DNA of 32,000 nt from Cereibacter sphaeroides 2.4.1 (GTDB lineage Bacteria > Pseudomonadota > Alphaproteobacteria > Rhodobacterales > Rhodobacteraceae): the NCBI RefSeq assembly GCF_000012905.2, contig NC_007489.1, positions 60,001 to 92,000 on the forward strand, given 5' to 3'. The position numbers and the translations under genes are program-made. This document shows, in pieces, positions 983-30,816 of this stretch. The notes beneath the pieces were generated by a model, which was not told the origin of the DNA, did not search any database, and saw nothing but the letters and a program-made list of their open reading frames with translations. How positions within the stretch are numbered: position 1 is the stretch's first letter; every line of letters starts with the position of its first letter.

Positions 983-1110
983 TCGGCGCCCGCCGACCGC
1001 GCCCGAAAACCCCCGGAAAAAAATCTCGCCGCGTGTTTCCGCCCCGCGCGCGGCGAACTCACTTCCAGATCCGTCCGAAAATGGACCGCTCACACCAGAG
1101 GAAGACGTCA

Positions 1111-1263
1111 ATGTCCCGCATCATCCCCCTGCCTCCGAAACCCGCGCCCGCCCTGCATCTTGCGGCCGCCAACGAGAACCCCGGCGGCGCGACCGAAGCG
1201 ACGATCGCGCTGCGCTCGCTCGTGACCGTCATCGCCCGCGACCACGCACCCGCCTGCGCGTAG
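1111..1263 (+). CDS. small hypothetical protein (50 aa)
   Basis: The ATG has a GAGGAA-like SD 7 nt upstream and GC3-rich codons. An 8-bp-stem hairpin (1275-1301) follows the stop. The ORF is short and no family is recognised. Confidence 0.3.
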   Translation: MSRIIPLPPKPAPALHLAAANENPGGATEATIALRSLVTVIARDHAPACA

Positions 1264-1353
1264 GCCCTTGGCTCGCGGGCAGCCGCCCCGGCGCTGCCCG
1301 CACATTCCCCTCCGACCAAAGCTGGCCCGCGTCACGGGCCGAGAAGGACAATA

Positions 1354-2016
1354 ATGCAGCTCCTGCCTGTCTTCCCCTCTCCCGAGGGCCTGATCCCTGC
1401 CAGTCTGCGCATCACCTATTCCAGCGTCTGGCGCGTCGTCGCGATCGATGGGCGCGGTCACATGTCGACACACACCGCCGTGGCGCCCTTCTCCCGGCGC
1501 GGCTGCGAGGAGTTCTTTCAGAACCACCTCGCGCAAAACGGACAGGCCTTCATCTGCGCGAAGTCGACCCCGCTCCTCGACGTGCCGCCCTGCGCGCAGC
1601 GCCCCGAAGAGGCCCGCGCCCGCATCACGGCCCTGATCGACGCGCTCGAAGCGAGCGGCGTCCTCTGCGACCCGCTCCTCCGCAACCTGCCGGCCGGCTG
1701 GGTGAAGCCGTTCGAGATCTTCGTCCGTGACCTCCTGCGGCTTCGCGAGACGGTGAGCTTCGAGGTCGCGCTGATGCTGCAGGCCGTCCTTTTCGGCGGC
1801 GACGTCCCGCTGGTCTTCGGCCAGCCCGAGATCCGCGACTTCGTCCGCGCGATGTGGGACTGGTTTGTGGCGCAGACCCGCACGCGCTGCATTCTCACGG
1901 GTGAAGCGGCGACGCAGCTCCCGAGCGGCCGAGTCGTGGGCCGCGCGGGCGAGAAGCTGCTCAAGCGCGACCCCGCGGCGTTCCAAGCACAAGTCTACGG
2001 CCCCGAAGCCGCCTGA
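1354..2016 (+). CDS. hypothetical protein (220 aa)
   Basis: The ATG has AAGGA (1344-1348) 5 nt upstream and strong GC3 bias. The stop TGA (2014-2016) lies 14 nt before the recombinase ATG. No family recognised. Confidence 0.75.
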
Positions 2017-2030
2017 CAGGAGACCCATCC

Positions 2031-3725: not shown

Positions 3726-3748
3726 GGCACTGACGGCACCACGCCACC

Positions 3749-3772
3749 GAAGCCTCCCCACGGGGAGGCTTC
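3749..3772 (+). terminator. candidate intrinsic terminator hairpin after the recombinase gene
   Basis: Perfect 10-bp stem GAAGCCTCCC / GGGAGGCTTC with a 4-nt loop, 24 nt after the stop. The downstream tract ATGCATTTCGG is only weakly T-rich. Confidence 0.45.
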
Positions 3773-3941
3773 ATGCATTTCGGCGTCCAGGTCGCTCGGA
3801 TTTCGCAGCAATCTCAACACGCTGAGGCGGAACCGCGCCATCTGCCAGGAGTCCCGCCGAAACCCGTAGATTTCGGGGGTATCAGGGGCATGATACCAAC
3901 CAGATGATCTCCCGCCTCGCAGAGGAAAGTGGACACCAGCG

Positions 3942-4904
3942 TCAGGCCTCGCGCAGATCCGAAATGTGCTTGGTGAACCACCGATAGGTTTCCGTGATCC
4001 CTTCTTGGAGCGCTATTTCGGCGCGCCAACCCATCAGCGTGAGACGGCCGACGTCCATTAGCTTGCGCGGGGCGCCGTCCGGCTTTGACGTATCGAACAC
4101 GATACGGCCTTGGAACCCGATTACCTCCGCGATCAGCCGGGCAAGATCGGCGATTGAAATGTCCTCACCGGTACCCAGATTGACGTGGCTCAGCATGGGC
4201 TGGGTGTTGGCGCGGTAGGTCTCGGCGTCGAGACCCATCACGAACAGTGCGCCTTTCGCCATGTCGTCTACATGCAGGAACTCGCGCATGGGGCGGCCCG
4301 AACCCCAGATCAATACCTCGTCCCGGCCCTCGACAACGGCTTCGTGAAACCGGCGCATGAGGGCTGGCAGAACGTGGCTATTCTCGGGATGGAAGTTGTC
4401 GCCTGGCCCGTAGAGGTTGGTCGGCATCACGGAACGATAGTCGGTGCCGTATTGCCGATTGTAACTCTCGCAGAGCTTGATCCCGGCGATCTTGGCAATG
4501 GCATAGGGTTCGTTGGTGGGCTCCAGTAAGCCGGTCAGAAGGGCTTCCTCCGCCATAGGTTGGGCCACATCGCGCGGGTAGATGCAGGATGACCCCAAAA
4601 AAAGGAGCTTTCTAACGCCTGCGGCATGGGCCTGATGGATCACGTTCGACTGGATCATCAGGTTGTCGTAGATAAAATCAGCCGGGTAGGTGTTGTTGGC
4701 GTAGATCCCGCCGACCTTTGCAGCTGCCAGCACCACGGCATCGGGCTGCTCGGTCTGGAAGAAGTCCCGCACCGCGGCCTGGTCAGTCAGATCCAATTCA
4801 GCGTGAGCGCGGGTGACGGTTTCAGTGCCTGCGGCTTCAAAGCGGCGAAGGATGGCGCCTCCCACCATGCCGCGATGGCCCGCTACGTAGACTTTCATCT
4901 CCAT
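3942..4904 (-). CDS. fcl: GDP-L-fucose synthase (GDP-4-keto-6-deoxy-D-mannose 3,5-epimerase/4-reductase)
   Basis: [16 protein letters not shown] Rossmann N-terminus, then SSCIYP..., [22 protein letters not shown] and LHVDDMA, which are typical Fcl/WcaG motifs. It starts 3 nt after the gmd stop. An alternative ATG is at 4898. Confidence 0.92.
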
Positions 4905-4907
4905 GCG

Positions 4908-6029
4908 TCAGCTTTCGAGCGCCACGGGCAGGTGCAGCCCGTTCTCACGAAGAAGTCGATGGCGGCGGGCGGATTTCAGATCCTCGGCCACCATCTCGGC
5001 GCACATCTCGCGCACGGTCATTTCCGGTACCCAACCGAGCTTCTGCTTGGCCTTCGCCGGATCGCCTAGAAGCGTCTCCACTTCCGCCGGGCGGAAATAG
5101 CGCGGGTCGATGCGCACGATCACGTCGCCGCGCGTAACCTCAGGCGCCATATCGCCACAGACGTCTTCCACGACCCCGATTTCCTCCACGCCCTGCCCTT
5201 CAAAGCGGAGCGTGATGCCGAGCTCGGCGGCCGACCACTTGATGAACTCGCGCACCGAGTATTGCAAGCCAGTCGCAATCACGAAATCATCGGGTTTCTC
5301 CTGCTGCAGCATCATCCACTGCATCCGAACATAGTCCCTGGCGTGACCCCAGTCGCGGAGGGAGTCGATGTTGCCCATGTATAGGCAGGGCTCCAGTCCC
5401 TGGGCGATATGGGAAAGGCCCCGGGTGATCTTGCGGGTTACGAAGGTCTCGCCCCGGCGCGGGGACTCATGGTTAAAGAGGATGCCGTTGCAGGCGTAGA
5501 TCCCGTAAGACTCGCGGTAATTGACGGTGATCCAATAGGCATAGAGCTTGGCCACGGCATAGGGCGAGCGCGGATAGAATGGCGTCGTCTCACGCTGCGG
5601 TATCTCTTGCACGAGGCCGTAAAGCTCAGAGGTCGATGCTTGGTAAAACCGCGTCTTTTTTTCCAGCCCGAGGAAGCGAATCGCCTCGAGCAGCCGCAGC
5701 GCTCCCACCGCATCGACATCGGCGGTATACTCGGGGCTCTCGAAGCTCACCGCAACATGGCTCTGGGCGCCGAGGTTGTAAACCTCGTCCGGTTGGATCT
5801 GGGCAAGGATACGGGTGAGGTTCGAACTGTCGGTCAGATCGCCGTAATGCAGCTTCAGCCTTGGATTGCGGGCGTGCGGATCTTCGTAGATGTGGTCAAT
5901 TCGCTGGGTGTTGAACATTGAAGCCCGGCGCTTGATGCCGTGGACCTCATAGCCCTTCTCCAGAAGGAACTCCGCCAAGTACGAGCCGTCCTGCCCCGTG
6001 ATCCCGGTAATCAGGGCGGTCTTCGTCAT
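4908..6029 (-). CDS. gmd: GDP-mannose 4,6-dehydratase
   Basis: [52 protein letters not shown] and [20 protein letters not shown] form the canonical Gmd signature. Its ATG overlaps the upstream GT2 stop (ATGA at 6026-6029). Confidence 0.95.
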
Positions 6030-6787
6030 CCAGTATGTCCTTCACGAGTAACGAACTGAGATACTTTTAAAGCGTTTTTTAGCATTAAGGTGCCAACTCC
6101 ACCAACCTCGTTTCGACGGATCGCGCGCAAATCCTCGCGACTTTTACATAAAACGCGTTCCAGCGACTTGTTGCTCTCGCCCCCCGTCCGCATCTTGACG
6201 AGAACGTCGGGAATGTACGCCAGTCGGATCTGACCGCGGACGAGCCATCGCAGTATGGCGTCGTAGTCGGCTGAGATTCGGAATGTCGGATCATAGGCCC
6301 CGAAAGATTCGAATACAGCACGCCGCAGATAAAGCGTCGGGTGCGGAGGCATCCACCCTCTCGACAGTTTGCCGGGCTCGTATGCTCCTGACGACCAATG
6401 CCGCAGAATACGGGAGGGATTGCGATAAGACACATAGTCGAGATCGCCGTATACCCCGTCGACGCGCGGATCACGAAATGCATGAGCAACTTTTTCGAGA
6501 ACCTTGTCGTGCGCAAAGAAATCGTCAGAATGCATGAGACCGATGATTTCCCCTGTCGACCGAGCAATCCCGCGGTTGATCGCAGGGTAGATACCTCCGT
6601 CGCGCGCACTTTCGAGAGATAACTCGGGGCGCAAATGCTGAGCTATTTCCTCCAGGGTACCATCGGTCGATCCTCCGTCCTGTATGACATGCTCCACCGG
6701 CGCGTAGGTCTGCGCTTGGACGCTGCGGAGCGCATCCGCAATTGTTTCACGACGGTTATAAACCGCAGTAACAACCGAAATCTTCAT
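6026..6787 (-). CDS. family 2 glycosyltransferase
   Basis: [40 protein letters not shown] and ..MHSDDFF match the GT-A fold N-terminus with a DD motif. The ORF track start at 6802 is 5 codons upstream; MKISVV (6787) is the more typical start. G+C is visibly lower than in the surroundings. Confidence 0.85.
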
Positions 6788-7039
6788 GTTACAGATTCTC
6801 AAGTGAGGCGCCGCCCGTCAATTTAGCCCAATCCGAGCTACAGAAACGAAAGCTTACTCAGTGGTAGCGCCAAGCCTTAAGGCTCACGCGCTTTCATTAT
6901 ATCCCAGATGGCATTAAACCGTTCATGGAGAATGCGGATCAACGAAGATCCACACGGCACGGCGTTAAAAGCTACCGCACGGCGTCCCGCTTCGTGACAC
7001 CGAAGGACAATTCAACTTGCCCCAAGAACACTGAGTTAT

Positions 7040-7390
7040 GTATCCGCAAAGCGCGGCGATTGGAAGACGTTTCGTTCCGATCACTGAGTCCACCCTGAAC
7101 AACGCTGAAGTTCTTGATCCGGCGAGAGAAAGCCGAGGTTTGCATCGCCATGGCCTGCGGAACTTCATAGGATTCCGAGTGTAATCCTGCACCGCCCGAC
7201 CACCCACTGGTCGTTCGGCGACGTCGCCGCATGCGTTCCGGCTCTCTGGCGAGGCCGTAGTCGCAACGTGGACTGAGAACCCAGACCAGCACTTCGCCGA
7301 CGGGACCTTCTTCCAGCACTGTCCGCCGGTCGACCTCACCTCGCTCACCCGCTGGTGCAAGCGGATCGACGAGGAGGGTGTCGGCAACAG
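7040..7390 (+). mobile_element. IS5-family transposase N-terminal fragment (degraded)
   Basis: Stitched + frames read ..AKRGDWKTF.., ARPPTG..HAFRLSGEAVVATWTENPDQHFADGTFFQHCPPVDLTSLTRWCKRIDEEGV. This matches the GRP..L..LSDEAV..RW.ENPY.QYF.GE.FFQH..P.D.SSLTRWR.RIGE.G pattern of IS5-family (DUF772-type) N-termini. There are stops and frameshifts, and the rest of the gene is missing. Confidence 0.55.
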
Positions 7391-7860
7391 AAGACCACCC
7401 AGCGTGGCAGGGAGCCGCATCGTCGCGGATCCAGCACCGGCGCCGCCGTCTCGTCCATGTAGAGGCGGAAACTGTCAGCCTTCAGCAGTTCCGCCATCCG
7501 GAGGCGCGATCAGCGCGGCCCGCCACATCCAGTCTGCCAACGCCGAGCCGGGCCACGACCACCTCTTGGCGGTTGATTCCCTATCAATGGCGCGCGATCA
7601 AAGGTGCTCCGGTCGAACAGGGCGTCCCTCGCTCGATTCCGCCAATGTGTCCATCATCTCGCTTCGCCCTCGTCGTTCCGTTTAGGCCCGTATGCCGGCG
7701 CAACACACGCCTCAATGGCCTCGAGGTACCGCATCGCGGTCAAGAAGGCCGTTTCAATCCCACCGAATTAGCGCGCCAGACGGTCGGCGGCACCAGCACG
7801 AAGGCCCCCTGCCCCGCCAACGGCCAAGGGCGCAAAGACTGCTCCTCTCCCTTCACTGGC
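7391..7860 (-). mobile_element. IS66-family transposase fragment (degraded, multiple frameshifts)
   Basis: Minus-strand frames read ..DRLAR*FGGIE.., PLIGNQ.., SALADWMWRAA.. and LKADSFRLYMDETAAPVLDP. These match the IS66 TnpC motifs FGRSSE, PLYRQ, STLADWVG and ADETP..VLDP. The fragment is truncated where it abuts the IS5 fragment. Confidence 0.5.
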
Positions 7861-7949
7861 CGCGATCCGGACGGCCGTCACCGCAGCTTCCATGCGGTCG
7901 CCGTATTGTGTAAAGCCGGCTAGGCTCCAGAGATAGAAACCCACGCAAG

Positions 7950-8113
7950 CTCGGGTGATGGGTGCAGATCGTTGGCTTGCGCCAGGAGATCGAGCCCCCC
8001 GCTTGCGCGAAGCGATGTGCGAGCGCACGCCACGCGGGCGAACCAGCTGGCAGCCCTCGTCGAGAAAGATGCTACTGGAGCGCGCCGCGAAGCCGGGATG
8101 CTCGGCTGAGTAA
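7950..8113 (+). pseudogene. 3' remnant of a serine resolvase paralogous to the gene at 14176-15060
   Basis: The + frame reads ..GAD..PRLREAMCERTPRGRTSWQPSSRKMLLERAA... The intact resolvase C-terminus reads KGADP..ARLEAMRERTPRGRTNWQPSSVKMLLERAERLGMLG. The nucleotide alignment done by eye is clearly homologous but diverged. There is no upstream catalytic domain. Confidence 0.55.
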
Positions 8114-8116
8114 ATG

Positions 8117-8766
<650 letters not shown>

Positions 8767-8833
8767 TTAAAACTAGTTGGTCTTTGCAGCAAGTTCAAGC
8801 ATCGGCTGTGACGCCCGTGTATCAAATCCTCGT

Positions 8834-9070
8834 TTACAGCGCGTCGATCCCGCGAACGAGTTTGCCACGCAACGCTTGAAGCGAGCCGACCCACGTGTCC
8901 AGTTCGACCAACATAAGAGTTTCCATCAGTTGAGGCATGATGAGGTAGTGCTCCTTGCGCCGCATTACCTTCGGGATCAGCGTCGTCGTGCCGCGCGCCA
9001 CTGTCCCCGCGAGGACAAGCGGTTTCACGACCCAGGTGGAGAACGGCTCAAGAAGGTAGCCGTGCAGCAT
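8834..9070 (-). CDS. hypothetical ORF (78 aa), possibly a gene remnant
   Basis: Moderate GC3 bias. An in-frame stop lies directly before the ATG and there is no convincing SD. No family recognised. It sits among gene fragments. Confidence 0.25.
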   Translation of the reverse strand: MLHGYLLEPFSTWVVKPLVLAGTVARGTTTLIPKVMRRKEHYLIMPQLMETLMLVELDTWVGSLQALRGKLVRGIDAL

Positions 9071-9184
9071 CTAGATGAACTGTCCACCACTCTGTACAGA
9101 TCGCCTACGTCGCCACCGTTCGACGCTCGCGAAAGCACGCTAGAGGCAAACCGTTGGCAGCGATAAGTTCCGCCGGGCGTGGCT

Positions 9185-9500
9185 CGGATTGCACAGCTCG
9201 GTGCGGGAGCGAACCGAAATTTTGGCCCTGACCCACCGCGTCCGGGGTGGATGCCGCGATCAGCGACGAGCTGAAGCGGGAGCATCGGAATGGCGCCTAG
9301 GACGTGACGGTCGCCAGTCTCACGCCGCTCTCGCTCACCCGCGCCGAGGCTCGCGAGGCGGCCAGCTACAAGGCCGGTGATGTGGTGATCTTGGTGCAAA
9401 GCGTGGAGGGATTGGAGCGGGATAAACTACACCGGGTTACATCCACCCTGAGCGCCACGAACGCGAGATGGAGAACCGCACAGGGCGGCCCTTGGCATCA
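9185..9500 (+). pseudogene. conjugative relaxase-helicase (TraA/TrwC, RecD-like helicase part) fragment
   Basis: Frames read SVRERTEILALTHRV, then after a shift GVDAAISDELKREHRNGA*DVTVASLTPLSLTRAEAREAASYKAGDVVILVQS..KLHRV. This matches the tl-IL-A-tn..V..LN..IR..L...G.L ... Y..GD.V.F pattern of relaxase helicase domains. It contains one frameshift and one in-frame TAG, and both ends are missing. Confidence 0.5.
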
Positions 9501-10336: not shown

Positions 10337-11047
10337 TTAGCTCGCCGCTACTATCTCGCAGCGCGTATCTGAGCCAAAGCAGGCTTGAAGCGGATGCTCG
10401 AGCTCGCGCCTCAGATGCGTCTCAAGATATTGCGCCGCGAACCGCGACGGCGCGCACACGGTCACCACGCCCCGTTCGGCTCGTACCAGCGACAGGCGTG
10501 CATACCACGATGCGAAATGGGCTGGGTTCGCGTCTTCCAGCATCTGCATCATCCGCGCCCACGGGCTTGATGCGCCGCGCAAGCCGCTCGAAAAATCCAC
10601 ATGGACCACATGTGCATCCGGGCATGGCGGTGGAACCTGCCGATGCGGCGTGAGCTCGTGGCGGGCCGCCATGCGGAGGGCGAAGTCGGATCCGACCTTG
10701 CCCCACTCTTCCTGGGTTGCTGCATAGATCGCGGGAAGATCAAGGGCATAGACAGCCACCCTGCCCTTCACGCCCCGGACCTTCAGCACGAGGAAGCCCG
10801 TATCGATCAGGCGACGGGTCTCGCGTTTCGCGGTGCGCTCGTCCACGGACCAAAGCGCGGCCATTTCGCGTTGACCTATGGCCATCTCCCCGCGCGCCCA
10901 GTTGTAGCGGGCCGTGACAAGTGCCACCAGTCGAAGGATCGACGTCTGCAGAGTGCCACTCGATGACAACCCCTTAACTGCCAGAGCGGTAAGAATGTCG
11001 TATTTCTCGGCACCTGCTCCAGGGCCTGCAAGTCGCGCATTCTGCAT
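10337..11047 (-). CDS. candidate plasmid replication initiator (winged-helix-like N part, DnaA-N-terminal-like C part)
   Basis: GAGG lies 8 nt upstream of the ATG. The gene is solitary and divergent from parAB, the layout known for Rhodobacteraceae RepA/RepB/DnaA-like replicons. The C-terminal W..M...L......F.SWY..L.LV......V.V.AP.RF...YLE.HL resembles the DnaA N-terminal domain pattern. The family call is from memory. Confidence 0.55.
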   Translation of the reverse strand: MQNARLAGPGAGAEKYDILTALAVKGLSSSGTLQTSILRLVALVTARYNWARGEMAIGQREMAALWSVDERTAKRETRRLIDTGFLVLKVRGVKGRVAVYALDLPAIYAATQEEWGKVGSDFALRMAARHELTPHRQVPPPCPDAHVVHVDFSSGLRGASSPWARMMQMLEDANPAHFASWYARLSLVRAERGVVTVCAPSRFAAQYLETHLRRELEHPLQACFGSDTRCEIVAAS

Positions 11048-12715: not shown

Positions 12716-13767
12716 TGGTCAAGGGGAACAGGTTCGGGATCGGTCCTGTCGAGACGCCGACAACCGGGACCCGGCGCAGCCGCGATCTGGGTCCGATGGG
12801 TGTGGCCGTGCGAGAGAGCGCCGCGAGTGCGCAGGAAGCGAGCGATGCGCTGGTCGAGCAGCGGAGGCAAAATGCCGCCGATGCGCGGGAGTTCCGCGCC
12901 GCGCGCGACGAGGGCAGGGTGCTCGTTCGGCTGCCGGTGGGCGAGATCGAGGTGGACCAGCTTCCTCGTGATCGGCTCGACCTCGAGGGCATTGCTGAAA
13001 GCGACGATATGGAGGAGCTCAAGGCCTCGATCCGCGAGCGCGGCCAGCGCGAACCCATCGAGGTCTACCTCTCGAACTCGGGGCGCTATCAGCTCAAGAA
13101 GGGATGGCGCCGTCTCACTGCGCTGCGCCAGCTTCATGCGGAGAGTCAGGATGAGCGGTTCGCCTGCGCCATCGCGCGCGTCACGACGCCGGATGCCGAC
13201 CGCGCGGATCTCTATGTCGACATGGTGGAAGAGAACGTAATCCGCCAGGACCTGAGCTTCGCCGAGATGGCGCAGATCGCCTTGGCGCTGGCGGCCGATC
13301 CGCAGGCGGGGGTGGGCGATCCCGATGCCGCCGTGGCAAGGCTCTACCGCTCGCTCCACAAGGTGAAGCGCTCCTACATCCGGTCCTTCGTGGCTTTGAT
13401 GGCGGCCGTAGGCGAGGATCTCCCGTTTCCCAAGGCGGTTCCGCGGGACCTCGGGGTGGATGTCGCGCGGAAGCTCGGCGACGGGCTGGAGATTCCGCGG
13501 AGCCGTCTCGCGGCTTGTGCCTCTGTGGAGGAGCAGAACGATCTGCTGCGAGGGCTCGTCCAAGGGGCCGCACGCCCGGTGGATGTCCGGGCTGCGGCGG
13601 CGCCGACGGCACGCCAGAAGTACGAGTTCCGGGTGGGCGACACGAAGGTTACCGCCCGGAACGGTGAATTCCGCATCCGTGCCGCCTGCGACTATTCCGG
13701 CATCGAGCGTACGGTGCTCGAGAGGGCGGTCCGTGCTTTTCAGGATGCGCTGTCCCGCAAGGAGTGA
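12715..13767 (+). CDS. parB: ParB/RepB-type partition protein
   Basis: The ATG overlaps the parA TGA (TGATG), with GGGAGG upstream. The ParB-box-like region reads LPRDRLDLEGIA..DDMEELKASIRERGQREPIEVY..GRYQLKKGWRRLTALRQL, followed by an HTH region. Confidence 0.88.
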   Translation: MVKGNRFGIGPVETPTTGTRRSRDLGPMGVAVRESAASAQEASDALVEQRRQNAADAREFRAARDEGRVLVRLPVGEIEVDQLPRDRLDLEGIAESDDMEELKASIRERGQREPIEVYLSNSGRYQLKKGWRRLTALRQLHAESQDERFACAIARVTTPDADRADLYVDMVEENVIRQDLSFAEMAQIALALAADPQAGVGDPDAAVARLYRSLHKVKRSYIRSFVALMAAVGEDLPFPKAVPRDLGVDVARKLGDGLEIPRSRLAACASVEEQNDLLRGLVQGAARPVDVRAAAAPTARQKYEFRVGDTKVTARNGEFRIRAACDYSGIERTVLERAVRAFQDALSRKE

Positions 13768-13776
13768 GGCGGCGCA

Positions 13777-13816
13777 GTTACCGGTCGGTAACTGCGGCTG
13801 GTTACCGGCCGGTAAC
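13777..13816. other. parS: two parS-like 16-bp palindromes (candidate centromere)
   Basis: GTTACCGGTCGGTAAC (13777-13792) has one central mismatch. GTTACCGGCCGGTAAC (13801-13816) is a perfect palindrome. They are 8 bp apart and begin 10 nt after the parB stop. The second fits the repABC-type parS consensus GTTNNCNGCNGNNAAC as I recall it. Confidence 0.7.
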
Positions 13817-14175
13817 TGTTTCACGCTGTCAGGGCGGAGTCCGGGCAGGCGAAACTCCGATGTGCACCGTGCCATCAGGGGCGGCTGAGGTAACAGATTA
13901 CGTGCGGCGACCTTGTTGTTGAAATTTCCCAGTGCATGGTTGGCGACCGGAACGCCGACGACCTCCGGCGAGGGCGCCGCGCTTCAACGGCTGACCTCCC
14001 GCGGTAGCAGGTCGTAGGCCCAGAGGAACCTCTGGTCGTCGCGCGATGATCGTGGCCAGCGCCTTGATTGCGTGTTGCACCACGCTGTGGAGCGAGGACA
14101 TGCAGGATGGCCTGCTGTCCAAGGCACGCTTCGGATCGCGAACCCCTTTGCGTAAAGGGTGGGTGTCTGCCATGC

Positions 14176-15060
14176 CTACCCGAGCATCCCCAGCCTTTCG
14201 GCGCGCTCCAGCAGCATTTTCACGGATGACGGCTGCCAGTTGGTCCTCCCACGTGGTGTACGCTCGCGCATAGCTTCCAGCCGGGCGCAGATGTCCTGCA
14301 GCGTGATCTTCGGGTCTGCGCCCTTTATGGCGGCGACTATGGCTGGCAGTCGGTCGTCGGTTTCGCGTCGGCCGGCGCGGGCCAGCACGGCTGTGGGAAG
14401 CAAACCGTCGCGGACATAGGCGTTGACGGCGCGCAGGAGCCGGGTCTGGGTCCAGCGGCGGGCTTGGGGCAGTGGGGCGTTGATGATGCGCAGTACGTCT
14501 TCCCAGGCCATGTCGGGGCGCAGGCGGCGGACGTGGGGCACCCAGTCCTGCGCTGTCTGGTTCAGGCGCTCCATGTAGCCGTCCTGTCGCGCGAGGCGGA
14601 TCTTGCGCAGCGCTGCCGGATCGCGGGCGCGCAGGCCCGGGTTGCCGCCGATCCGGCCTTCGGTGCGGGCGCTGGCGAGGCCTGCCTTCGTGCGCTCGCG
14701 GATCAGGGCACGCTCGAACTCGGCCGTGGCGCCGAGGACCTGGAGGGTGAACTTGCCCTGGGGCGAGGCGGTGTCGATCGGGTCGGTCAGCGAGCGGAAG
14801 AAGGCGCCCTTCGCCTCCAGCCGCTCGATCACTTCCAGCAAATGCGAGAGCGAGCGCGCGAGGCGGTCGATGCGGACGACGACGAGGGTATCGCCGCGGC
14901 CGATGCGCTCGAGCACCCGCGTCAGCACGGGGCGGGCACGGTTTCCGCCGGAGGCCTGTTCCTGGTGGATCTCGCTGCAGCCTGCGGCCTTGAGGGCCTG
15001 GGACTGGGGCAGGGGGGTCTGGTCCTCGGTGGAGACGCGGGCGTAGCCGATGAGGGGCAT
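14176..15060 (-). CDS. serine recombinase (resolvase/invertase family, long C-terminal extension)
   Basis: MPLIGYARVSTEDQ carries Ser10 (nt 15031-15033). Also present are GDTLVVVRIDRLARS, FRSLTDPIDT and LGATAEFERALIRERT, followed by about 150 aa of HTH-like C-terminal region. Confidence 0.9.
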   Translation of the reverse strand: MPLIGYARVSTEDQTPLPQSQALKAAGCSEIHQEQASGGNRARPVLTRVLERIGRGDTLVVVRIDRLARSLSHLLEVIERLEAKGAFFRSLTDPIDTASPQGKFTLQVLGATAEFERALIRERTKAGLASARTEGRIGGNPGLRARDPAALRKIRLARQDGYMERLNQTAQDWVPHVRRLRPDMAWEDVLRIINAPLPQARRWTQTRLLRAVNAYVRDGLLPTAVLARAGRRETDDRLPAIVAAIKGADPKITLQDICARLEAMRERTPRGRTNWQPSSVKMLLERAERLGMLG

Positions 15061-15340
15061 GGGGGGGGTGGTTTCCAGTTTCGGATGCTGCGAGTAAACG
15101 ACCGTTTATAAACAGATGCAATGGTGCTCGCTTGAGCGCTGCTGAGCAGAAAGCCATTTGTTGACTGACGTTAAGCACGATCAGAGGGGGTTTCAGACCG
15201 TCGCGCATGTGCATAAAACAGAATGCGGAAAGCTGGCTGGAAGAAGTGGTGGGTAAAGCGCATATGCGCTGTATTTTGCGCGTAAAAGAACTAACTATCT
15301 GTTTTTAAATTTATAATTTAGGCCGTCTTTTCTGACGTTG
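15061..15340. promoter_or_regulatory. AT-rich resolvase upstream region with palindromes (candidate res/promoter region) and a G8 tract
   Basis: G8 lies at 15061-15068, directly abutting the resolvase ATG. TAAACGaccGTTTATAAAC forms overlapping palindromes at 15095-15113. AGCGCATATGCGCT is a perfect 14-bp palindrome at 15257-15270. TAAATTtatAATTTA lies at 15306-15320. CTGACGTT is repeated at 15165 and 15332. Confidence 0.3.
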
Positions 15341-15772
15341 AACAGGCTGAGGGGGTGGCCAAGGTCGATCAGGGATCCTGCGAAGGCTGAACGAAAGGGA
15401 GCCCGGCGATCCAGAGATAGGGCGGCGCGCCCTCGGTCGGTCGCGCAGACAGTCATCCATCACTCATGCGCCTGAAAACTCGCACTCTGAGAGGTTTACA
15501 GCCAAGGCTCTATTCGCCGTGTGCAACTTGCCCGCTGCGTGTACACATGACAATCAATCCCGTACGAATGCATGGGCGACCGGATCGCGTCGGTGTTCTA
15601 CGCACGAAGGCTATCGGAAATTCTCATGAACATGTCGCACATCCTGCAGCACGACGAACTTGCGCCTTCCCTTCGCAGGAGGGGTCGCGGGCGGGTCGCA
15701 ATCAGCAAGCCCGCTTCCTGTCCGCTGGGTCGTGGATCGGCAAGCTTGCAGCCCGACCCGTGCAAGCGCGTG

Positions 15773-16366
15773 ATGCCCCTTTCCCGCGATCTTCGCGAGA
15801 AGACGGGCATGCTCCACAACCGGGCCGAAACGCTCCTCGGCTTGCCAAGCGGCATCATGGGCTGGGCCGATTACGTGGATTGGCTTCGGCATTTTCTAGC
15901 CTTGTACGATCCGATCGAACGTAGGATTGTGGCCTTTGGAGGCTGGAGCGGGTTGGCATCCTTCGACCCTGACCCGGGCCATTCGCGGCGCCTGATCCAG
16001 GATCTGCACGCCCTTGGCATCGACACCGACCGCATCCCGCGAGCACCGGCCGAATACTGCCCGCCGCTCACGAACTTCGCCCGGGCGCTCGGCGCCCGCT
16101 ATGTGCTCGAGGGCTCTGCGCTTGGCGGCAGGGTCATCCTGCATCATCTGAAGAAGCGCATCGGCGACGAAATCGGGAATGCGACTGCCTTCTTTGGCGG
16201 CCCGTCCCACGGGACCGCGACGCACTGGCGTGCCTTCCAGGCTGCGCTGGACCGGTTCGGTGCGGCACATCCCGACAAGAGGGCGGATGTGCTGGCCGGC
16301 GCCGCCGCGACCTTCACGGCGCTCCTCGAATGGTTCACCCCTTTTGTGGCAGCCCGGCGGGTATGA
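15773..16366 (+). CDS. bphO: heme oxygenase (biliverdin-producing, BphO-type)
   Basis: MPLSRDLREKTGMLHNRAE.. matches the LR..T...H..aE start of heme oxygenases, and ARYVLEGSALGG is also present. The gene lies immediately upstream of the bacteriophytochrome. The track ORF start at 15572 adds 67 Arg/Gly-rich residues that are unlikely to be real. Confidence 0.85.
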   Translation: MPLSRDLREKTGMLHNRAETLLGLPSGIMGWADYVDWLRHFLALYDPIERRIVAFGGWSGLASFDPDPGHSRRLIQDLHALGIDTDRIPRAPAEYCPPLTNFARALGARYVLEGSALGGRVILHHLKKRIGDEIGNATAFFGGPSHGTATHWRAFQAALDRFGAAHPDKRADVLAGAAATFTALLEWFTPFVAARRV

Positions 16367-25056: not shown

Positions 25057-26430
25057 TCAGAAGCTCCAGCCGACGCCGACACCGGCACCCGTCTTGCCGC
25101 CGGCATGGCTGAGCGCGCCACGTAACGTCACATTGTTGTTCACGATGGCAGTTCCCCCCAAGGCCAGCGCCTCTTGGCCATCGAACCCACCGACGGCCAC
25201 GCCGAAGGAGTGATTGCTGCCGTCGAGGGGAGCTGGAAGCTGTGCCATCGCCATGCTCATCGCGACGCCCGCACTCACCTCCCGAAGCCCGTCATTCAGC
25301 TGCCCGACGTTGACGGCGTCATTGTCTTCCACGCCGTCGGCGATCCCCGACAGGCGGGCGGGTGCGCTGCCGGATCCGGAAAGGCGGGCGCCGGTGTCGG
25401 TCAGGGCAAGGGTGGTGTTACCTCCCTGCAGTGTTGCCTCGTGTATGGCAGTGATCCGGGTGGTTCCATTGGCCGTGGCCGTGATGCCATTGCCGCCATG
25501 GGTAAGGACTGCGGCCGTGTCCGTCAGTTGCACCCGGGCTCCCCCTGCGGTCGTGGCCAGAATGCCGGACGAGCCCAAGGTGAAGCTGGAGCCGGCGTTG
25601 TTCATTGCAACCTGACCGGTCGTCTGCAGATCAGCCAGCCGGCTGCTTCCGGTAGTTTCCAGCTCTCCGAAGGAGAACTTCGAGGGAAGCGACAGGTTTC
25701 CGTCGATGGTCAGGTTGCCGGTGACGTGCAGGTCTTCCGTCCTCATGTCCTTGGCAACGAGATCGCCGAAGCCGGCGGCCCCGGTTACGGCCAGCGGGCC
25801 CAGCACGTCGACCTTTGCCATCGTACTGGCTCCCGACACGACGAGGGTGTCGAGTTGTGAGGTGCCGGCGACGGAAAGGGCTCCGGTCGAAGTGGTTCCC
25901 GCGACGCTGGCGCTTCCGAAGCGTCCGGCGCCTCCTACCTCCAGATCCGACCCGAAGCTCGCCGTGCCGCTCACGCCCATCGGTCCGTTGACGGCAAGGG
26001 CTTTCTGAACGGTGGCGGTCTGCATCCGCGCGTCGCCGAGGGTGCTTTGTCCGGCCACGTTCAGTGCGCCCGCGATTGCAGCGTTGCCCTGAACGGTTGC
26101 GCTCTGCAGAGTGCTGGCGCCGGAAACAGCTAGGGCGTTGAGCTGCGAGGTGCCGCTGACGGAGAGGGAGGTCGCGCTGGCGTCGCTCAGTACGCTGGGA
26201 CCGGTGACGTTGAGGGCGCCTTCGAGGGTTGCCGCGGAGATGCTTCCCGCGCTTATGTGCCCCGTGATGGTCACGTCTCCGACGATGGCCATTTCGGCTC
26301 CCGCCGCGCCAGTCGTCAGGGCAACCAAGGCAACGCCGCCCCAAAGGCCATACTTCGACCCTTTGGCCCCAGGGCGAAACCTCTGCATTGCCCCTGCCGC
26401 CACATGAGGCTGCCCAGTAGCGTCTTTCAT
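25057..26430 (-). CDS. trimeric autotransporter adhesin (YadA-like C-terminal anchor)
   Basis: The C-terminus reads NDAVNVGQLN...AGVAMSMAMAQLP......FGVAVGGFDGQEALALGGTA......LRGALSH.....AGVGVGWSF. This corresponds to a neck plus a 4-strand YadA-type anchor ending in F. The passenger is Gly/Ala/Ser/Thr/Val-rich and repetitive. A signal-like segment GLWGGVALVALTTGAAGA is present. GAGG lies 7 nt upstream of the ATG at 26430; the track start at 26556 is unlikely. Confidence 0.85.
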   Translation of the reverse strand: MKDATGQPHVAAGAMQRFRPGAKGSKYGLWGGVALVALTTGAAGAEMAIVGDVTITGHISAGSISAATLEGALNVTGPSVLSDASATSLSVSGTSQLNALAVSGASTLQSATVQGNAAIAGALNVAGQSTLGDARMQTATVQKALAVNGPMGVSGTASFGSDLEVGGAGRFGSASVAGTTSTGALSVAGTSQLDTLVVSGASTMAKVDVLGPLAVTGAAGFGDLVAKDMRTEDLHVTGNLTIDGNLSLPSKFSFGELETTGSSRLADLQTTGQVAMNNAGSSFTLGSSGILATTAGGARVQLTDTAAVLTHGGNGITATANGTTRITAIHEATLQGGNTTLALTDTGARLSGSGSAPARLSGIADGVEDNDAVNVGQLNDGLREVSAGVAMSMAMAQLPAPLDGSNHSFGVAVGGFDGQEALALGGTAIVNNNVTLRGALSHAGGKTGAGVGVGWSF

Positions 26431-26841
26431 TGCTCGACCTCTGAATGGTGGACGCAGAGAGGGACGCCACCTGTTTTTATAATGGCTCGCACGACATTGG
26501 TCGTGTTGACACTCATGCGAACAGGGCAATCCAATACTTATTGATGTGGAGGTCAAAAACTGTCCAAGAGTTATCGACCGTGCAACTTTTGATGATACGG
26601 TCCGCGTGAATCCCGCACCTTTTTAAAAATTCCGTGATCTTTGGAGGATTCTTCTCGGCCCCTGCTGGATGGGAATTATCCTTCGGATGATGGGTGGGGC
26701 AAATTTACCCGCTTAGATTGTCAGTCGCGAGCTTTACGACCGCGATGGATGTTCATGCGCGTGGAGGGGGATGCCGCGGCATTTTCGCCTTCCGGGGCGT
26801 GTAAGGGGGGGACATCACCCCACATGCCCAACCCATAAGAC

Positions 26842-27021
26842 TTGTGCTCGGCGGCCGGGCTTTCGCTGGTGACCCTGCGTCGCTTCGAGAGCCACGATTA
26901 TGCGGGTCTCGTGGCCACGAAGACCGTGGAGGGGGTCAGGACGATCCTCGAGCAACGGAGCGCGCGGTTTCTCGCCGCCGCTGAGCCTTCGCCCAGACCG
27001 GGCGTTGCCCCGATCTTCTGA
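26842..27021 (+). pseudogene. C-terminal remnant of an XRE-type HTH protein (59 codons from a TTG)
   Basis: ..AAGLSLVTLRRFESHDYAGLVATKTVEGVRTILEQRSARFL matches the aGvS..Ti.RFE.G......tl..ir..LE..Gv.F pattern. The first helices of the HTH are missing, and a TAA lies directly upstream in frame. Confidence 0.35.
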
Positions 27022-27037: not shown

Positions 27038-27844
27038 TCAGCGGAAGGGCTGGTTGCGGACCGCCCACAGGGCAGGTGGCAGGATATCGGCGGTCAGCCG
27101 GGGCAGGATGCCGAAATCGGGGGAGGTGACGCTGGAGGCGCCCTTCAAACTTTCGATGGTCCGCTGGATGTCCTGAGCCTCATGCGCATGGAAGTCGAAC
27201 AGCGCGCAGATCACCTGGCTTGCGAGACCGTCCGTCATCCGTTCCGCGATCCCGAGGCGCGCGCGTTCCGCAATGTCTCTGAATGTATCGACCGCGTCAC
27301 CCGGTCGGGCCAGCCCTGGGCCTGTCAGTGCATGCAGGACAGAGCGTACGAAATCCTTCGTGGCTTCGGCACTGGCGAAGAGGCCGGCCCCCTTGAGCTT
27401 CGTGTGATAGCGAGAAGCGGTTTTTGCCAGCGACTCGTATCTGTTCAGCCGGGGATAGCGTCCGATATAGGCTTCGACCAGTTCATCACGGCGCTTGCCG
27501 GTAGCTGCCAGGCGGCAGCGCTGGTACTGCAGCACGAACCCCATCCCCCGCAGGAAATTGGTCGCGACTGGACGGCTCTGCTTCGGTTCTGGCAGGGACT
27601 TGACCGTTCCGGCTGTGGTCAGGGTGCGCGTGGTGGCCTTCAGGCCGGGGAGCTGAGACAGCGTCTCCAGCGCTGGCCCCGACGGCAGGCGCCCATCCGA
27701 AAGCCCGAGGAGCAGGTCGAATGAAGCCGGCTCGGCGATGTGGACGGTATTCATGAGAAGGAGAAGGGCCGTGTCGAGGGTGCCTGCGGCTCCGCCGGAC
27801 TGGGCGAGAGTGGCAGTCAGCGATGCCGTGAAATCCTTTTCCAT
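27038..27844 (-). CDS. hypothetical protein (268 aa from ATG 27844; the track TTG at 27916 gives 292 aa)
   Basis: Long ORF with GC3 bias. AGGGA lies 4 nt upstream of the ATG at 27844. The TTG-initiated extension encodes PLPPPPPPS. No family recognised. Confidence 0.6.
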   Translation of the reverse strand: MEKDFTASLTATLAQSGGAAGTLDTALLLLMNTVHIAEPASFDLLLGLSDGRLPSGPALETLSQLPGLKATTRTLTTAGTVKSLPEPKQSRPVATNFLRGMGFVLQYQRCRLAATGKRRDELVEAYIGRYPRLNRYESLAKTASRYHTKLKGAGLFASAEATKDFVRSVLHALTGPGLARPGDAVDTFRDIAERARLGIAERMTDGLASQVICALFDFHAHEAQDIQRTIESLKGASSVTSPDFGILPRLTADILPPALWAVRNQPFR

Positions 27845-28116: not shown

Positions 28117-30816
28117 ATGGAACTCACAATGTTCTCGGTGACGAAGGTCAAGGCAGTCAGGCCGGTGGAGCTGTCGAAGCGGTATGATCTGCGCGACGGC
28201 AACCTGACGAAGACGGTGGTGGCGGCGCTCTCTCGCGGTCAGGTAGAGACGCTGGAGCTCGAAGGGATCGAGGCCCTGGCAGAGGTGATCTCCCGGCTCA
28301 CGCCGGCGGAGGCGCTCATGCTCGGCGTGCCCCAGATCAAGTCCGCCACGACGATTGTAACCCGGCGGATGCTAAGCGCGCATCTCCGTGAAGGAGATAT
28401 TGCCCGGACGGCTGATAATTTCGTCTATCCCGAAGGGGCGGGTTTCCTGTTCATCGACCACGACGGTCTGCAGGACGGAACCTGCCTCTCCCGGGAGGAT
28501 CTGCTCGAGCGGCTTTACGCCTGCGCGCCAAGCCTGCGGCAGGTCAAGATCCTCGCGTTGCCCTCGTCCTCCTCGCACATCTGCCGGACGGACACTGGCG
28601 AGGATCTGACCGGCGCGCGGGGGTTGCATCTCTATATCCCCGTGAAGGACGCGCGGGACATCCCGCGCATCGGCAAGGTCCTGACCGATCTCCTCTGGCT
28701 GGGCGACCAGGGATATGTGCGGATCGCCTCGAATGGCGCCCGTCTGCTGCGCAGCCCGATCGACAGCACGGTCTGGCAGCCGAGCCGGCTGGTGTTTGCG
28801 GCTGGGGCGATCTGCGCCAACGGGCTTGAGCAGCGGCGGGGCGCGCCGGTGATCGTCAATCCGGAAGGCGCGGACCTCTGGGACAGCGTGGCGCTGCTGC
28901 CTACTCTCGATGCGGCCGCCCAGGCTCTGGTGCAGGCGACGCGCGACCGCGCCCTGGCGCTGTCCCAGAAGGCGGCGGATGAACAGCGAGCGGTCTGGCT
29001 CGAGGACTTTCGTCCGGGGCTGTTGCGCGATCTCGGGGCCGGGCCGGAGGCACGGGAGCCGCGGGAGGAACTCCTTGCCGCGGTGGAAAATGCCGTTCTC
29101 GGCCCGGGCCTCCTGCTCTTCGTCCGGCGTGCCGGCGAGGTGCAGTTCGCGCCGGTGACCGTGGAGGCCATCCTCGCCGACCGGATCGGCTATCACCGGG
29201 CAATCACGCTCGACCCGATCGAGCCCGACTACAACGGTCGGGCTCCCGTCGGCTGTCTGTTCCTCGACGGGAGAACTCCGGTCCTGCATTCGATGGCGCA
29301 TGGCGGAACGAGCTATCGGCTCGAGCGGCGGACAACGATCGTCGAGCTTCATCCTGGCCGGATGGCGGAGGCGACGGAGGCGGTGCTCACCCACATGCGC
29401 GGCGACAGCCGCTTCATGGATCACGGCGACCTCCTCGTCACGATCCATGACGGCAAGCGCCAGCCGATCGACGAATACCGGCTCGAACTCATGCTGGGAG
29501 ACATCCTGTTCCTGAAGGCCGACGCAAAGGGGAGGATGAAGCCCTCCGATCCGCCGTCGAGGCTTCTGCGCCAGATCCTGAGCCTCGGCGCGCAGCGCCG
29601 CCTGCGCCGCCTGACCTTCATTCTGCGCCGCCCGACCCTCAACGCCCGGGGGGAACTGCTCACGCGGCCCGGCCATCATGCGGGCGAGGGCCTCTATCTG
29701 GACTACGATCCCGAGGAGTGGCCCGAGATCCCCCTGACCCTTTCGCAGGAGGATGCACGAGCCGCCCTGAAAATGATCTGGAAGCCCTTCGCGGCCTTTC
29801 CTTTCGTGGATGCGGCTTCGCGCGGAGCCCTTCTGGCGGCGATTTTTACCGCGATCCTTCGTCCGTCCCTGCCGACGGCACCCCTGGTTGCCAGTGACGC
29901 TCCCAACCACGCCTGCGGCAAGACCTTGGCGCTGGAGGCGGTGGCCAGCCTCGCTGCGGGCGAGCCGGTGAGCGTGGCGGCGCCCTTCGACGGGGACCAG
30001 GCGGAGATGCGCAAGCTGCTGACCAGCACCGCCCTTGCCGGCGACTCCACGCTCCTCTTCGACAATTGCCGGACCTTGCTCGACTCCCCCCAGCTGAGCG
30101 CCTTCCTGACGGGCGAATACTGGTCGGACCGGCTCCTCGGATCCAACGTGATGCGCAATGGCCTGCCCACCCAGATCTTCCTGGGCGTCACGGGGGTCAA
30201 CCTGCAGTTCAGCGCCGAACTGCGGCGCCGGACGATCGCCTGGCGGATCGATCCGCAGGTCGAGCGCCCCCATGAGCGGGCCTTCGACTTCTGCCCGCGG
30301 GAGCAGGTCATGACGTTCTACAAGGAAATCGTGGCAGCCAGCCTTGCGCTCATCAGGACGGCGCAGGCTGCGGATCTGCCGAGGCCGGCTCATACCTTCG
30401 CCTCCTATCCGGTCTGGGACCGCCTGATCCGCACGGCGGTGCGACATGCCGCGCAGCTGACCGACGGCTTCTTCGCCGATCCGGTGCCCCAGGCTGTCCG
30501 CGCCGTGGCCGAGACGGAGGAGGTGATCGACCTGCACGCCCTGCTCGCCGGGCTGATGGAGGCCTTCGGCGGCGAGGCCTTCGGCTCGGTCGATGTCTGC
30601 ATGCTGATCGAGGATCCGGCCAACCGCAGGCTCGGAGCCCTGATGGCAGGCGCCACCCAGCGTCCGGACCGGCTTTCCCCGAAAAGTCTCGGCCGCTATC
30701 TGGCGCAGTATGTCGACCGGCCGAGCGGCCATCTGGTGCTGCGGGCGCGGCGCGGAAGCAAGGCGCTGAGCTTCTTCGTGGAGCGCGTCCCTCAGGAGGC
30801 CCCGGAATCCGCCTGA
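28117..30816 (+). CDS. putative replicative primase-helicase (AEP prim-pol-like N-domain + P-loop/SF3-helicase-like module + winged-helix-like tail)
   Basis: 899-aa ORF with strong GC3 bias. FLFIDHDG has DxD at nt 28456-28464, GLHLYIPV has His at nt 28627-28629, and IDSTVWQPSRLVFAAG follows. Walker A is APNHACGKT (GKT at nt 29917-29925) and a Walker B-like STLLFDN follows. VTGVN..ELRRRT and the C-terminal LSPKSLGRYLAQYVDRPSGHLVLRARRGSKALSFFVERV complete the pattern. The CDS is confident; the function is inferred. The start is ATG 28117 or ATG 28129. Confidence 0.6.
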   Translation: MELTMFSVTKVKAVRPVELSKRYDLRDGNLTKTVVAALSRGQVETLELEGIEALAEVISRLTPAEALMLGVPQIKSATTIVTRRMLSAHLREGDIARTADNFVYPEGAGFLFIDHDGLQDGTCLSREDLLERLYACAPSLRQVKILALPSSSSHICRTDTGEDLTGARGLHLYIPVKDARDIPRIGKVLTDLLWLGDQGYVRIASNGARLLRSPIDSTVWQPSRLVFAAGAICANGLEQRRGAPVIVNPEGADLWDSVALLPTLDAAAQALVQATRDRALALSQKAADEQRAVWLEDFRPGLLRDLGAGPEAREPREELLAAVENAVLGPGLLLFVRRAGEVQFAPVTVEAILADRIGYHRAITLDPIEPDYNGRAPVGCLFLDGRTPVLHSMAHGGTSYRLERRTTIVELHPGRMAEATEAVLTHMRGDSRFMDHGDLLVTIHDGKRQPIDEYRLELMLGDILFLKADAKGRMKPSDPPSRLLRQILSLGAQRRLRRLTFILRRPTLNARGELLTRPGHHAGEGLYLDYDPEEWPEIPLTLSQEDARAALKMIWKPFAAFPFVDAASRGALLAAIFTAILRPSLPTAPLVASDAPNHACGKTLALEAVASLAAGEPVSVAAPFDGDQAEMRKLLTSTALAGDSTLLFDNCRTLLDSPQLSAFLTGEYWSDRLLGSNVMRNGLPTQIFLGVTGVNLQFSAELRRRTIAWRIDPQVERPHERAFDFCPREQVMTFYKEIVAASLALIRTAQAADLPRPAHTFASYPVWDRLIRTAVRHAAQLTDGFFADPVPQAVRAVAETEEVIDLHALLAGLMEAFGGEAFGSVDVCMLIEDPANRRLGALMAGATQRPDRLSPKSLGRYLAQYVDRPSGHLVLRARRGSKALSFFVERVPQEAPESA

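Follow-up and report, generated by a model that had tools for sequence, protein, structure and literature searches.

The 32,000-nucleotide stretch of Cereibacter sphaeroides 2.4.1 plasmid DNA analysed here (NC_007489.1, positions 60,001 to 92,000; below, the window) carries an 899-aa open reading frame (ORF) coding for a fused primase-helicase. An archaeo-eukaryotic primase (AEP) module forms the N-terminal half, while the C-terminal half is a D5-like superfamily 3 (SF3) P-loop helicase ending in a winged-helix-like tail. Such an architecture had been proposed from sequence motifs and was borne out by Pfam, PHROGs, AlphaFold2 (AF2) models and Foldseek. The gene is probably a mobile-element replicase module captured from a small plasmid-type element. 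Its parts are as follows, all on the forward strand.

28117..30816, +, primase-helicase ORF: ATG start, complete, 899 aa, fused AEP primase and D5-like SF3 helicase
28117..28416, +, N-terminal beta-rich domain, aa 1-100: moves with the primase module; AF2 strands E6-48 and E65-96
28453..28854, +, AEP catalytic core, aa 113-246: D114-x-D116, TGARGLH171LY, D216
28867..29346, +, primase-accessory region, aa ~251-410: helical hairpin, then a small beta domain; invariant D366, P367 and G396
29404..29883, +, helicase N-terminal domain and helical collar, aa ~430-589: inside the separately fused C-module
29884..30276, +, SF3-type P-loop ATPase core, aa 590-720: Walker A G601-K602-T603, Walker B D649-N650, sensor 1 N695
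30289..30789, +, C-terminal helical region, aa 725-891: ends in the winged-helix-like unit

The gene and its product

The ORF has an ATG start and a GC content by codon position (0.71/0.48/0.84) typical of coding DNA, which agrees with the sequence-only reading of this DNA. All eight motif strings named in that reading were located in the translation at the residues claimed: FLFIDHDG (110-117), ARGLHLYIPV (167-176), PIDSTVWQPSRLVFAAG (214-230), SDAPNHACGKT (593-603), STLLFDN (644-650), VTGVN (691-695), RRR (703-705) and the tail (853-891). The RefSeq record for the protein, WP_011331404.1, is named "DNA primase small subunit domain-containing protein". Five records of plasmids derived from C. 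sphaeroides 2.4.1 contain it at 100% identity; in two others the identity is 99.9% and 97.4%. The plasmids of about 105-107 kb found in Cereibacter (Rhodobacter) sphaeroides 2.4.1 and its derivatives are 100% identical to the window.

Homologous proteins are designated below as P#### and loci or contigs of relatives as L###, L001 being the NZ_CP015292 record. The cluster representative P0001 (895 aa) begins at Met5 rather than Met1 (28129 vs 28117). As neither start is preceded by a clear Shine-Dalgarno sequence, the beginning of the gene is uncertain by four codons. An antisense ORF of 786 aa (28372..30732, −) was rejected as a gene and considered a shadow frame of the high-GC primase-helicase gene. 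Its apparent tblastn conservation in relatives (E down to 1e-125) is explained by mirroring of the sense-strand coding sequence. Where the GC content is high, gene callers that rely on ORFs can be misled by such frames.

The helicase module

The AF2 model of the C-module (aa ~430-899) has a predicted local distance difference test (pLDDT) score of 90.8. A Foldseek search with this model against PDB found 47 chains at E <= 1e-3, the best at 8e-6. The chains listed are primase-linked D5-like helicases matched with a probability of 0.98-1.00: C962R PrimPol of African swine fever virus (ASFV), SCCmec Cch, the C-terminal region of the phage NrS-1 protein, SaPI5 primase-helicase and monkeypox virus (MPXV) E5 / vaccinia D5. 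The alignments to ASFV PrimPol, Cch and NrS-1 span about 260-570 columns and are long enough to exceed the ATPase core. In PHROGs, the C-terminal half is matched by phrog_29234 and phrog_19930, both "DNA polymerase/primase". Neither VirE, DUF927 nor DUF3987 of Pfam matched the helicase region, and a PDB sequence search with the 899-aa protein gave no match.

Residue conservation was scored on 37 sequences with identity down to 28%, and the family profile was built from 35 homologues. G601 and K602 of Walker A, D649 of Walker B, R672, R704 and R705 are invariant in all 37 sequences. T603 is conserved in 34, with Ser in the other three, and sensor 1 N695 in 33. Walker B reads hhhhDN, with Asn650 present in 36 of the 37 sequences in place of the D-D/E pair. 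The spacing from Walker A to Walker B, sensor 1 and Arg is 47, 46 and 9 residues, as in SF3 helicases such as the large T antigen of SV40. Conservation makes R704 and R705 the arginine-finger candidates of the ATPase core. The first residue of the RRR triplet, R703, is not conserved, although the triplet had been described as arginine-finger-like as a whole.

The end of the protein (aa ~824-890) consists of three helices and a beta-hairpin according to the AF2 secondary structure (H395-403, H405-418, H426-436, E444-450 and E455-461 in C-module numbering). It is a candidate origin- or DNA-binding unit, judging from the model. A P4-type winged-helix tail had been suggested here; the modelled tail looks winged-helix-like, and the P4-family membership was not supported (see the comparison with known systems).

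The window copy deviates from the family at five of 103 near-invariant positions. Three of the deviations, G599A, G653T and R686Q, fall into the ATPase core. Together with the truncation of the adjoining helix-turn-helix (HTH) gene and the lack of an origin, integrase or relaxase described below, they would fit an inactive relic, which has lost its function and is open only through recent capture. We find such decay doubtful: the number of deviations is inside the family range (0-9 in closer relatives), the 2.7-kb frame is open at 66-69% GC with all catalytic residues kept, and the relatives of 61% identity in Rhodobacter sp. NSM and Cereibacter azotoformans keep their full length. Since the ORF is intact and no catalytic residue has been lost, the protein is probably active, as far as can be judged from its sequence.

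The primase module

The Pfam profile PF01896 (DNA_primase_S) matches residues 113-246 at E 4.4e-11 and 43.8 bits (gathering cutoff 26.8), covering model positions 3-162 of 163. A longer part of the N-terminal half, aa 14-373, is covered by phrog_16593 "DNA primase" (E 3.8e-56). The beta-rich domain of aa 1-100 lies in the region covered by this PHROG and by phage proteins. D114 and D116 of motif I and D216 of motif III are invariant in all aligned sequences, as are S150, S152 and S153 of an SxSS motif and G169. Because the curated profile matches and the acidic triad is invariant, we accept that the N-module contains an AEP domain.

The AF2 model of the N-module (aa 1 to ~410-450; pLDDT 93, predicted template modelling score 0.84) places the motifs on beta-strands or directly after them: the motif I pair is at the end of strand E109-115, and D216 follows strand E209-212. 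When BFVD was searched with this model, Foldseek gave strong matches (E 1e-31 to 1e-35) to replication proteins of phages, annotated as "replication origin-binding protein" and "DUF927 domain-containing protein" (Ralstonia phage Simangalove). More remotely, the model resembles a PriCT-1 domain protein (E 1e-4) and a DNA primase of Pithovirus (E 7e-3, probability 0.54).

Motif II of the window protein reads T165-G-A-R-G-L-H171-L-Y and has conserved G166 and G169. We take it to match the PriS motif SGRRGVHCW position for position. Position 171 is occupied by His in 13 sequences of the family alignment and by Arg in the remaining 24. The AEP motifs proposed earlier were therefore confirmed for the acidic motifs I and III, while His171 cannot be considered a conserved catalytic residue. 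The motif II His is family-specific among AEPs of mobile elements, and members of the DR0530-like family have Arg or Lys instead (Kazlauskas et al., 2018, PMC5862659), so the switch at position 171 has a precedent.

The AEP assignment is weaker than the helicase assignment. Only three of 35 family members individually reach PF01896. Foldseek found nothing significant for the N-module in PDB (best E 0.098), and searching PDB sequences with the full-length family profile and with the near-clade AEP-core profile revealed no AEP. The HUH domains of pMV158 RepB appeared among the top PDB Foldseek matches of the N-module; these matches were not significant and were discarded.

By analogy, the accessory region that follows the catalytic core (aa ~251-410) may have a role similar to that of PriCT or Zn-binding helper domains elsewhere.

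Module exchange and the middle region

Both modules are found in other combinations. The N-module stands alone in P0042 (aa 5-490) and in Shewanella phage SFCi1 (aa 5-446), and is fused to DnaB_C/AAA_25 helicases in P0043 (aa 16-402) and P0047. The C-module is located behind a DnaG Zn-ribbon/Toprim primase in P0045 (aa 454-788) and before a PolA family-A polymerase in P0046 (aa 428-876). On other plasmids it is part of proteins annotated as bifunctional primase/polymerase, PriCT-2 or RepB-primase. This exchange with known replicative primases, helicases and polymerases argues strongly, from context, for a role of both halves in DNA replication. The alternative fusions also account for the central part of about 370 aa, which the sequence-only reading had left unassigned: residues ~250-410 belong with the primase module and residues ~430-590 with the helicase module.

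The gene could also stem from a prophage or phage satellite that decayed in the plasmid and left its replication gene behind. Both halves are matched by PHROG families, and BFVD gave strong structural matches. Altogether 71 phage records contain the N-module, Bcep1-like "DNA primase" genes among them, and the C-module occurs in roseophages. Phage satellites are organised much like the int-alpA-primase loci of distant relatives. We consider this origin quite improbable, as no phage record covers at least 80% of the protein and neither phage structural or lysis genes nor an integrase gene occur in the window. Besides, the nearest clade (44-61% identity) accompanies Mob relaxases and plasmid genes, not phage genes.

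Family size and distribution

The protein had been called an orphan, which it is not: besides having a RefSeq name, it belongs to a large family. A word-indexed search of 5.8 billion proteins gave 47 matches, about 40 of them full length at 28-61% identity. With the 35-sequence profile, 27,787 clusters were found at E <= 1e-3 and 15,936 at E <= 1e-30 among 1.84 billion representatives of 50%-identity clusters. The best 150 clusters are all full-length and score at least 754 bits; part of the 27,787 must share only one module. Two homologues, P0006 and P0014, have a pre-computed match to PF27402, and a newer Pfam release with this entry may define part of the family.

When each species was scanned in one genome, 139 loci were detected, and 80 of these were retained. 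Alpha-, Beta- and Gammaproteobacteria, Desulfobacterota and further phyla are represented among them, and complete chromosomes hold many of the loci. The closest relatives, full length and 61% identical, are those in Rhodobacter sp. NSM and Cereibacter azotoformans. Some genomes have two family copies at different loci: L024/L025 in Rhodobacter sp. NSM, L052/L055 in Tepidiphilus olei (one beside tmRNA, the other beside tRNA-Ser) and L059/L064 in gamma proteobacterium HdN1. This suggests the presence of several related islands per genome.

Genomic context of the relatives

Distant relatives (30-39% identity) are found in integrase/AlpA islands. P4-type integrases, searched with two seeds, are present in 27 of the 80 genome loci, mostly 1-3 kb upstream and co-directional. 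In these integrase loci an AlpA-like gene is located 0.3-0.5 kb upstream of the primase-helicase. A tRNA or tmRNA gene lies within 8 kb in 30 of 53 well-flanked loci, and in six of them it is the single-copy tmRNA gene.

One relative, P0037, is encoded by a circle of 8,441 bp from saline-lake-type Joint Genome Institute (JGI) metagenomes. Terminal overlaps of three independent contigs (L011, L012 and L013) reduce each of them to exactly 8,441 bp. A fourth contig, L008, is a two-variant concatemer of the same period with 539 mismatches between the units. The circle carries a P4-type integrase gene, an HTH_17 (AlpA-like) gene, two small ORFs and the primase-helicase gene. It also has an iteron-like array of 4-5 repeats of about 17 nt, 45 bp apart (L011 5118-5280), and a perfect 17-nt inverted repeat (L011 4128-4226).

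The complete Psychrobacter plasmid pA32H2 (6,547 bp) encodes a 933-aa homologue and has no other ORF longer than 170 aa. A 1.1-kb non-coding gap upstream of its small-ORF/primase-helicase operon contains an iteron-like array of about six tandem copies of a 10-bp unit (ACAAGCAATC; L002 2297-2354) and three 11-nt repeats 48-49 bp apart (L002 1878-1985). The gap is a likely origin of this plasmid, for which no Rep is annotated. A literature search on pA32H2 found no paper mentioning the plasmid. On pA17P3 the primase-helicase is located in an integrase and phage-like block beside RepM.

The near clade (44-61% identity) is of plasmid type. MOBQ- or Mob_Pre-type relaxases adjoin the primase-helicase in L007, L014, L020, L106 and L108, and a partner gene of about 270 aa and a classic AAA (PF00004) ATPase are found nearby. 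In six distinct contexts an ATPase of this kind, about 400-440 aa long, is encoded 0.4-5.5 kb from the primase-helicase; in two of them a conserved ORF of about 60 aa lies ahead of the ATPase gene. The recurrent AAA ATPase is located as follows.

L001, 16151-17545
L016, 13070-14362
L020, 6497-7822
L103-L105
L106, 7312-8658

The most divergent full-length homologue, P0040 (28% identity), is encoded in L016. One side of this locus (1-9389) bears genes for a DEAD/MZB helicase, an SNF2 helicase, an Eco57I/MmeI-type methyltransferase and an HNH protein; the AAA ATPase and a metallophosphatase are encoded on the other (13070-15821). Such neighbours look like defence-type cargo on a mobile element. 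An unrecognised conflict system had been one option of the sequence-only reading. These neighbours, along with the recurrence of the AAA ATPase and the abundance of toxin-antitoxin and conflict-type genes on the host plasmid, could be read as signs that the protein is part of such a conflict or anti-phage system, for instance one sensing or sabotaging invading DNA, and not a replicase. We consider this very improbable. PADLOC gave no match at E up to 10, genes for integrases, AlpA and relaxases together with tRNA/tmRNA genes dominate the surroundings of about 100 loci, and the modules swap with bona fide replicative enzymes. Neighbours of the defence type were seen at this one distant locus only. 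Defence genes beside family members are to be expected, since such islands commonly carry defence cargo.

The locus on the C. sphaeroides plasmid

The primase-helicase gene is preceded by two short genes with counterparts in relatives.

27041..27844, −, partner gene, 268 aa, WP_011331403.1: divergent from the primase-helicase; tblastn homologues near the gene in relatives
26842..27021, +, truncated HTH-gene remnant: homologue of a 92-aa protein adjoining the primase-helicase in L103-L105

Homologues of the partner gene were detected at eight loci with tblastn E values of 1e-13 to 1e-54, and are located beside or near the primase-helicase in L005, L023, L025, L014, L106/L107, L020/L021 and L108. 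The partner protein has no Pfam or PHROG match, and the search of 5.8 billion proteins gave only four clusters for it, all hypothetical. The product of 26842..27021 is 53% identical over 44 aa to the 92-aa protein, which by eye looks like an Xre-type HTH. The alignment starts from residue 22 of this protein, the N-terminus being missing, and the ORF has no Pfam match.

An AAA ATPase gene is located 5.5 kb downstream of the primase-helicase, beyond the window end, and its product is 43% identical to the L103-L105 copy. Between the two genes lies an NTP_transf_8 nucleotidyltransferase gene (PF12281, E 1e-63; L001 13284-14327), which was not found beside the homologues examined.

The only markedly low-GC stretch (0.44-0.52) between 26.4 and 32 kb is 26501-26700. 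It is flanked by the YadA-like adhesin gene, of which it lies upstream, and by the truncated HTH ORF, and the one sigma-70-like match of the region falls inside it. This stretch is probably the adhesin promoter, and it could be an AT-rich unwinding region. Promoter and terminator scans of the window flanks gave no matches above shuffled expectation.

The host plasmid has a maintenance system of its own: the window contains DnaA_N-domain Rep and ParA genes and a weak ParB_N match, confirming the claim that the replicon already has rep/parAB. MOB-suite assigned the plasmid to one replicon cluster only. Many toxin-antitoxin and conflict-type genes are present on it. The other features of the window are as follows.

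10340-11047, −, DnaA_N-domain Rep: plasmid maintenance
11348-12712, ParA: plasmid maintenance
16179-19229, +, bacteriophytochrome-GGDEF-EAL protein (PAS_2-GAF-PHY-GGDEF-EAL, 1016 aa)
19.7-24.4 kb, napEFDABC periplasmic nitrate reductase operon
25060-26292, −, YadA-type trimeric autotransporter adhesin

A working second replicon, an option that the sequence-only reading had also named, should be considered as well. In this case the gene would initiate replication of the 105-kb plasmid, or of its 27-37-kb segment, from a nearby non-iteron origin without need of the DnaA-like Rep. In favour of this, the ORF is intact and has every catalytic residue in place, homologues are the sole replicase candidates on pA32H2 and on the 8.4-kb circle, and the partner gene and the AAA ATPase are kept as in relatives. 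We nevertheless think it unlikely, because there are no flanking iterons or conserved non-coding DNA, MOB-suite sees a single replicon cluster and the adjoining HTH gene is truncated.

A probable captured replicase module

AEP, accessory domain, P-loop ATPase and winged helix, in this order, are the usual layout of mobile-element replicases (PMC5862659). We therefore return to the captured module as the preferred explanation. It would consist of the primase-helicase, the partner gene of about 270 aa, the truncated HTH gene and the downstream AAA ATPase. Shown directly are the identities of the domains, the residue conservation, the size of the family and the surroundings of the relatives; we infer the capture or decay in this plasmid, and propose the following mechanism by analogy. 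The C-terminal winged-helix-like unit would recognise the origin of the element, the D5-like SF3 ATPase would form a ring and unwind DNA, and the N-terminal AEP domain with the accessory domain would make primers to be extended by a host polymerase. In relatives the protein is probably the replication gene of islands that integrate at tRNA/tmRNA genes and have the order int-alpA-small ORFs-primase-helicase. In the C. sphaeroides plasmid the element has either lost or never had a recognisable origin, integrase and relaxase, and the host plasmid replicates from its own DnaA-like rep/parAB system.

The sequence-only reading had suggested the core of a captured cryptic element. This is supported by the relatives, which are found in integrase/AlpA islands, on a small circle, on a plasmid with a lone replicase and on Mob plasmids. 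In the window itself, the partner gene and the truncated HTH gene are shared with relatives, and no recognisable origin, integrase or relaxase is found near the gene.

Several observations speak against the captured module. No tRNA gene and no tyrosine integrase were found in the window, its only recombinase being a serine recombinase 24 kb from the primase-helicase. The MOBV relaxase of the plasmid was looked for near the gene: no relaxase is annotated there, and Mob_Pre seeds gave no match in about 89% of the plasmid record. Iterons, repeats, inverted repeats and AT-rich spots in the window flanks are not above chance, the low-GC stretch at 26.5-26.7 kb excepted, and the intergenic DNA around the gene is not conserved with the closest loci. 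When small near-clade contigs were checked for terminal overlaps, none were found and none closed into a circle. To these can be added the weaker AEP assignment, the Asp-Asn Walker B, the three deviations in the ATPase core and the hhalign comparison with pRN1 ORF904, which was not significant (probability < 1%, namely 0.15%). Since no experimentally characterised member of the family was found, we infer all of its enzymatic activities. Finally, the window data do not separate a captured module from a functional auxiliary replicon with an unrecognised origin.

A bolder proposal is that a distinct, structurally unsampled AEP lineage, marked by a PriS-like motif II alternating between His and Arg, the invariant SxSS motif, the conserved beta domain of the accessory region and a 450-aa N-module that resembles no solved structure, makes up, with the partner of about 270 aa and the AAA ATPase, an undescribed plasmid replication backbone of Rhodobacterales, which in C. 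sphaeroides is a working second replicon with a non-iteron origin. We put it forward tentatively, and doubt that it is right as a whole.

Significance

The family appears to be experimentally uncharacterised and poorly covered by curated models. It is among the larger uncharacterised mobile-element replicase families in Pseudomonadota, and Pfam and NCBIfam models leave most of its length uncovered. The protein can be annotated more fully as "AEP primase / D5-like SF3 helicase replicase", and its gene used as a marker of small islands and plasmids. In C. sphaeroides 2.4.1, which is in wide use as a model organism, the plasmid is flagged as possibly bearing a captured element or an auxiliary replicon. 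Two curiosities of modest interest to enzymology can be tested: the alternation of His and Arg in motif II, and the Asp-Asn pair of Walker B. The current understanding of how such elements replicate is unchanged.

Comparison with known systems

The architecture and logic described here are already well known from pRN1 ORF904, NrS-1, SaPI, D5 and ASFV C962R (PMC5862659).

At 904 aa, ORF904 of the Sulfolobus plasmid pRN1, annotated as "phage/plasmid primase, P4 family", is close in length to the 899-aa protein. In the hhalign alignment mentioned above, which is not significant, H171 is aligned with H145, GKT with GKS and RR with RR. ORF904 consists of an AEP prim-pol domain, a middle region, an SF3 helicase and a winged-helix-type C-terminus, and is the replicase of a 5.3-kb plasmid. 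The AEP of the window protein differs in fitting the PriS-type Pfam model, not the Prim-Pol model. An NCBIfam search with the window protein found no family at E up to 10, and together with the hhalign result this leaves the proposed membership in the P4-family primase C-terminal group without support.

Compared by description, the PrimPol-PV1 supergroup (e.g., PrimQH) has the same layout of AEP, accessory domain, variable P-loop helicase and winged helix, and is likewise tied to integrated mobile elements of Proteobacteria (PMC5862659). The DR0530-like family, also compared by description, has Arg or Lys at the place of the motif II His, similar to Arg in 24 of the 37 sequences here (PMC5862659).

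P4-like int-alpA-primase islands share the integrase, the AlpA-like gene, small ORFs and the tRNA/tmRNA neighbourhood with the relatives of 30-39% identity, one of which is the 8.4-kb circle. The alpha protein of P4 has a primase of the DnaG/Toprim type, not an AEP. The window locus differs from these islands in lacking integrase, AlpA and tRNA genes, and the near clade is associated with plasmids and relaxases.

The best structural matches of the C-module (Foldseek probability 1.00, E 8e-6 to 1e-3) are the D5-like SF3 primase-helicases, namely ASFV C962R, D5/E5, NrS-1, SaPI5 and Cch. The window protein is only 9-16% identical to them, has a D-N Walker B, and its N-module is without a significant PDB neighbour. 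The hosts differ as well: proteobacterial plasmids and islands here, eukaryotic viruses or staphylococcal islands for the D5-like group. What the two share is the order of Walker A, Walker B, sensor-1 Asn and Arg finger. In ASFV C962R and D5/E5 an N-terminal AEP primase is also part of the same polypeptide, and several proteins of the D5-like group serve the replication of viruses or islands.

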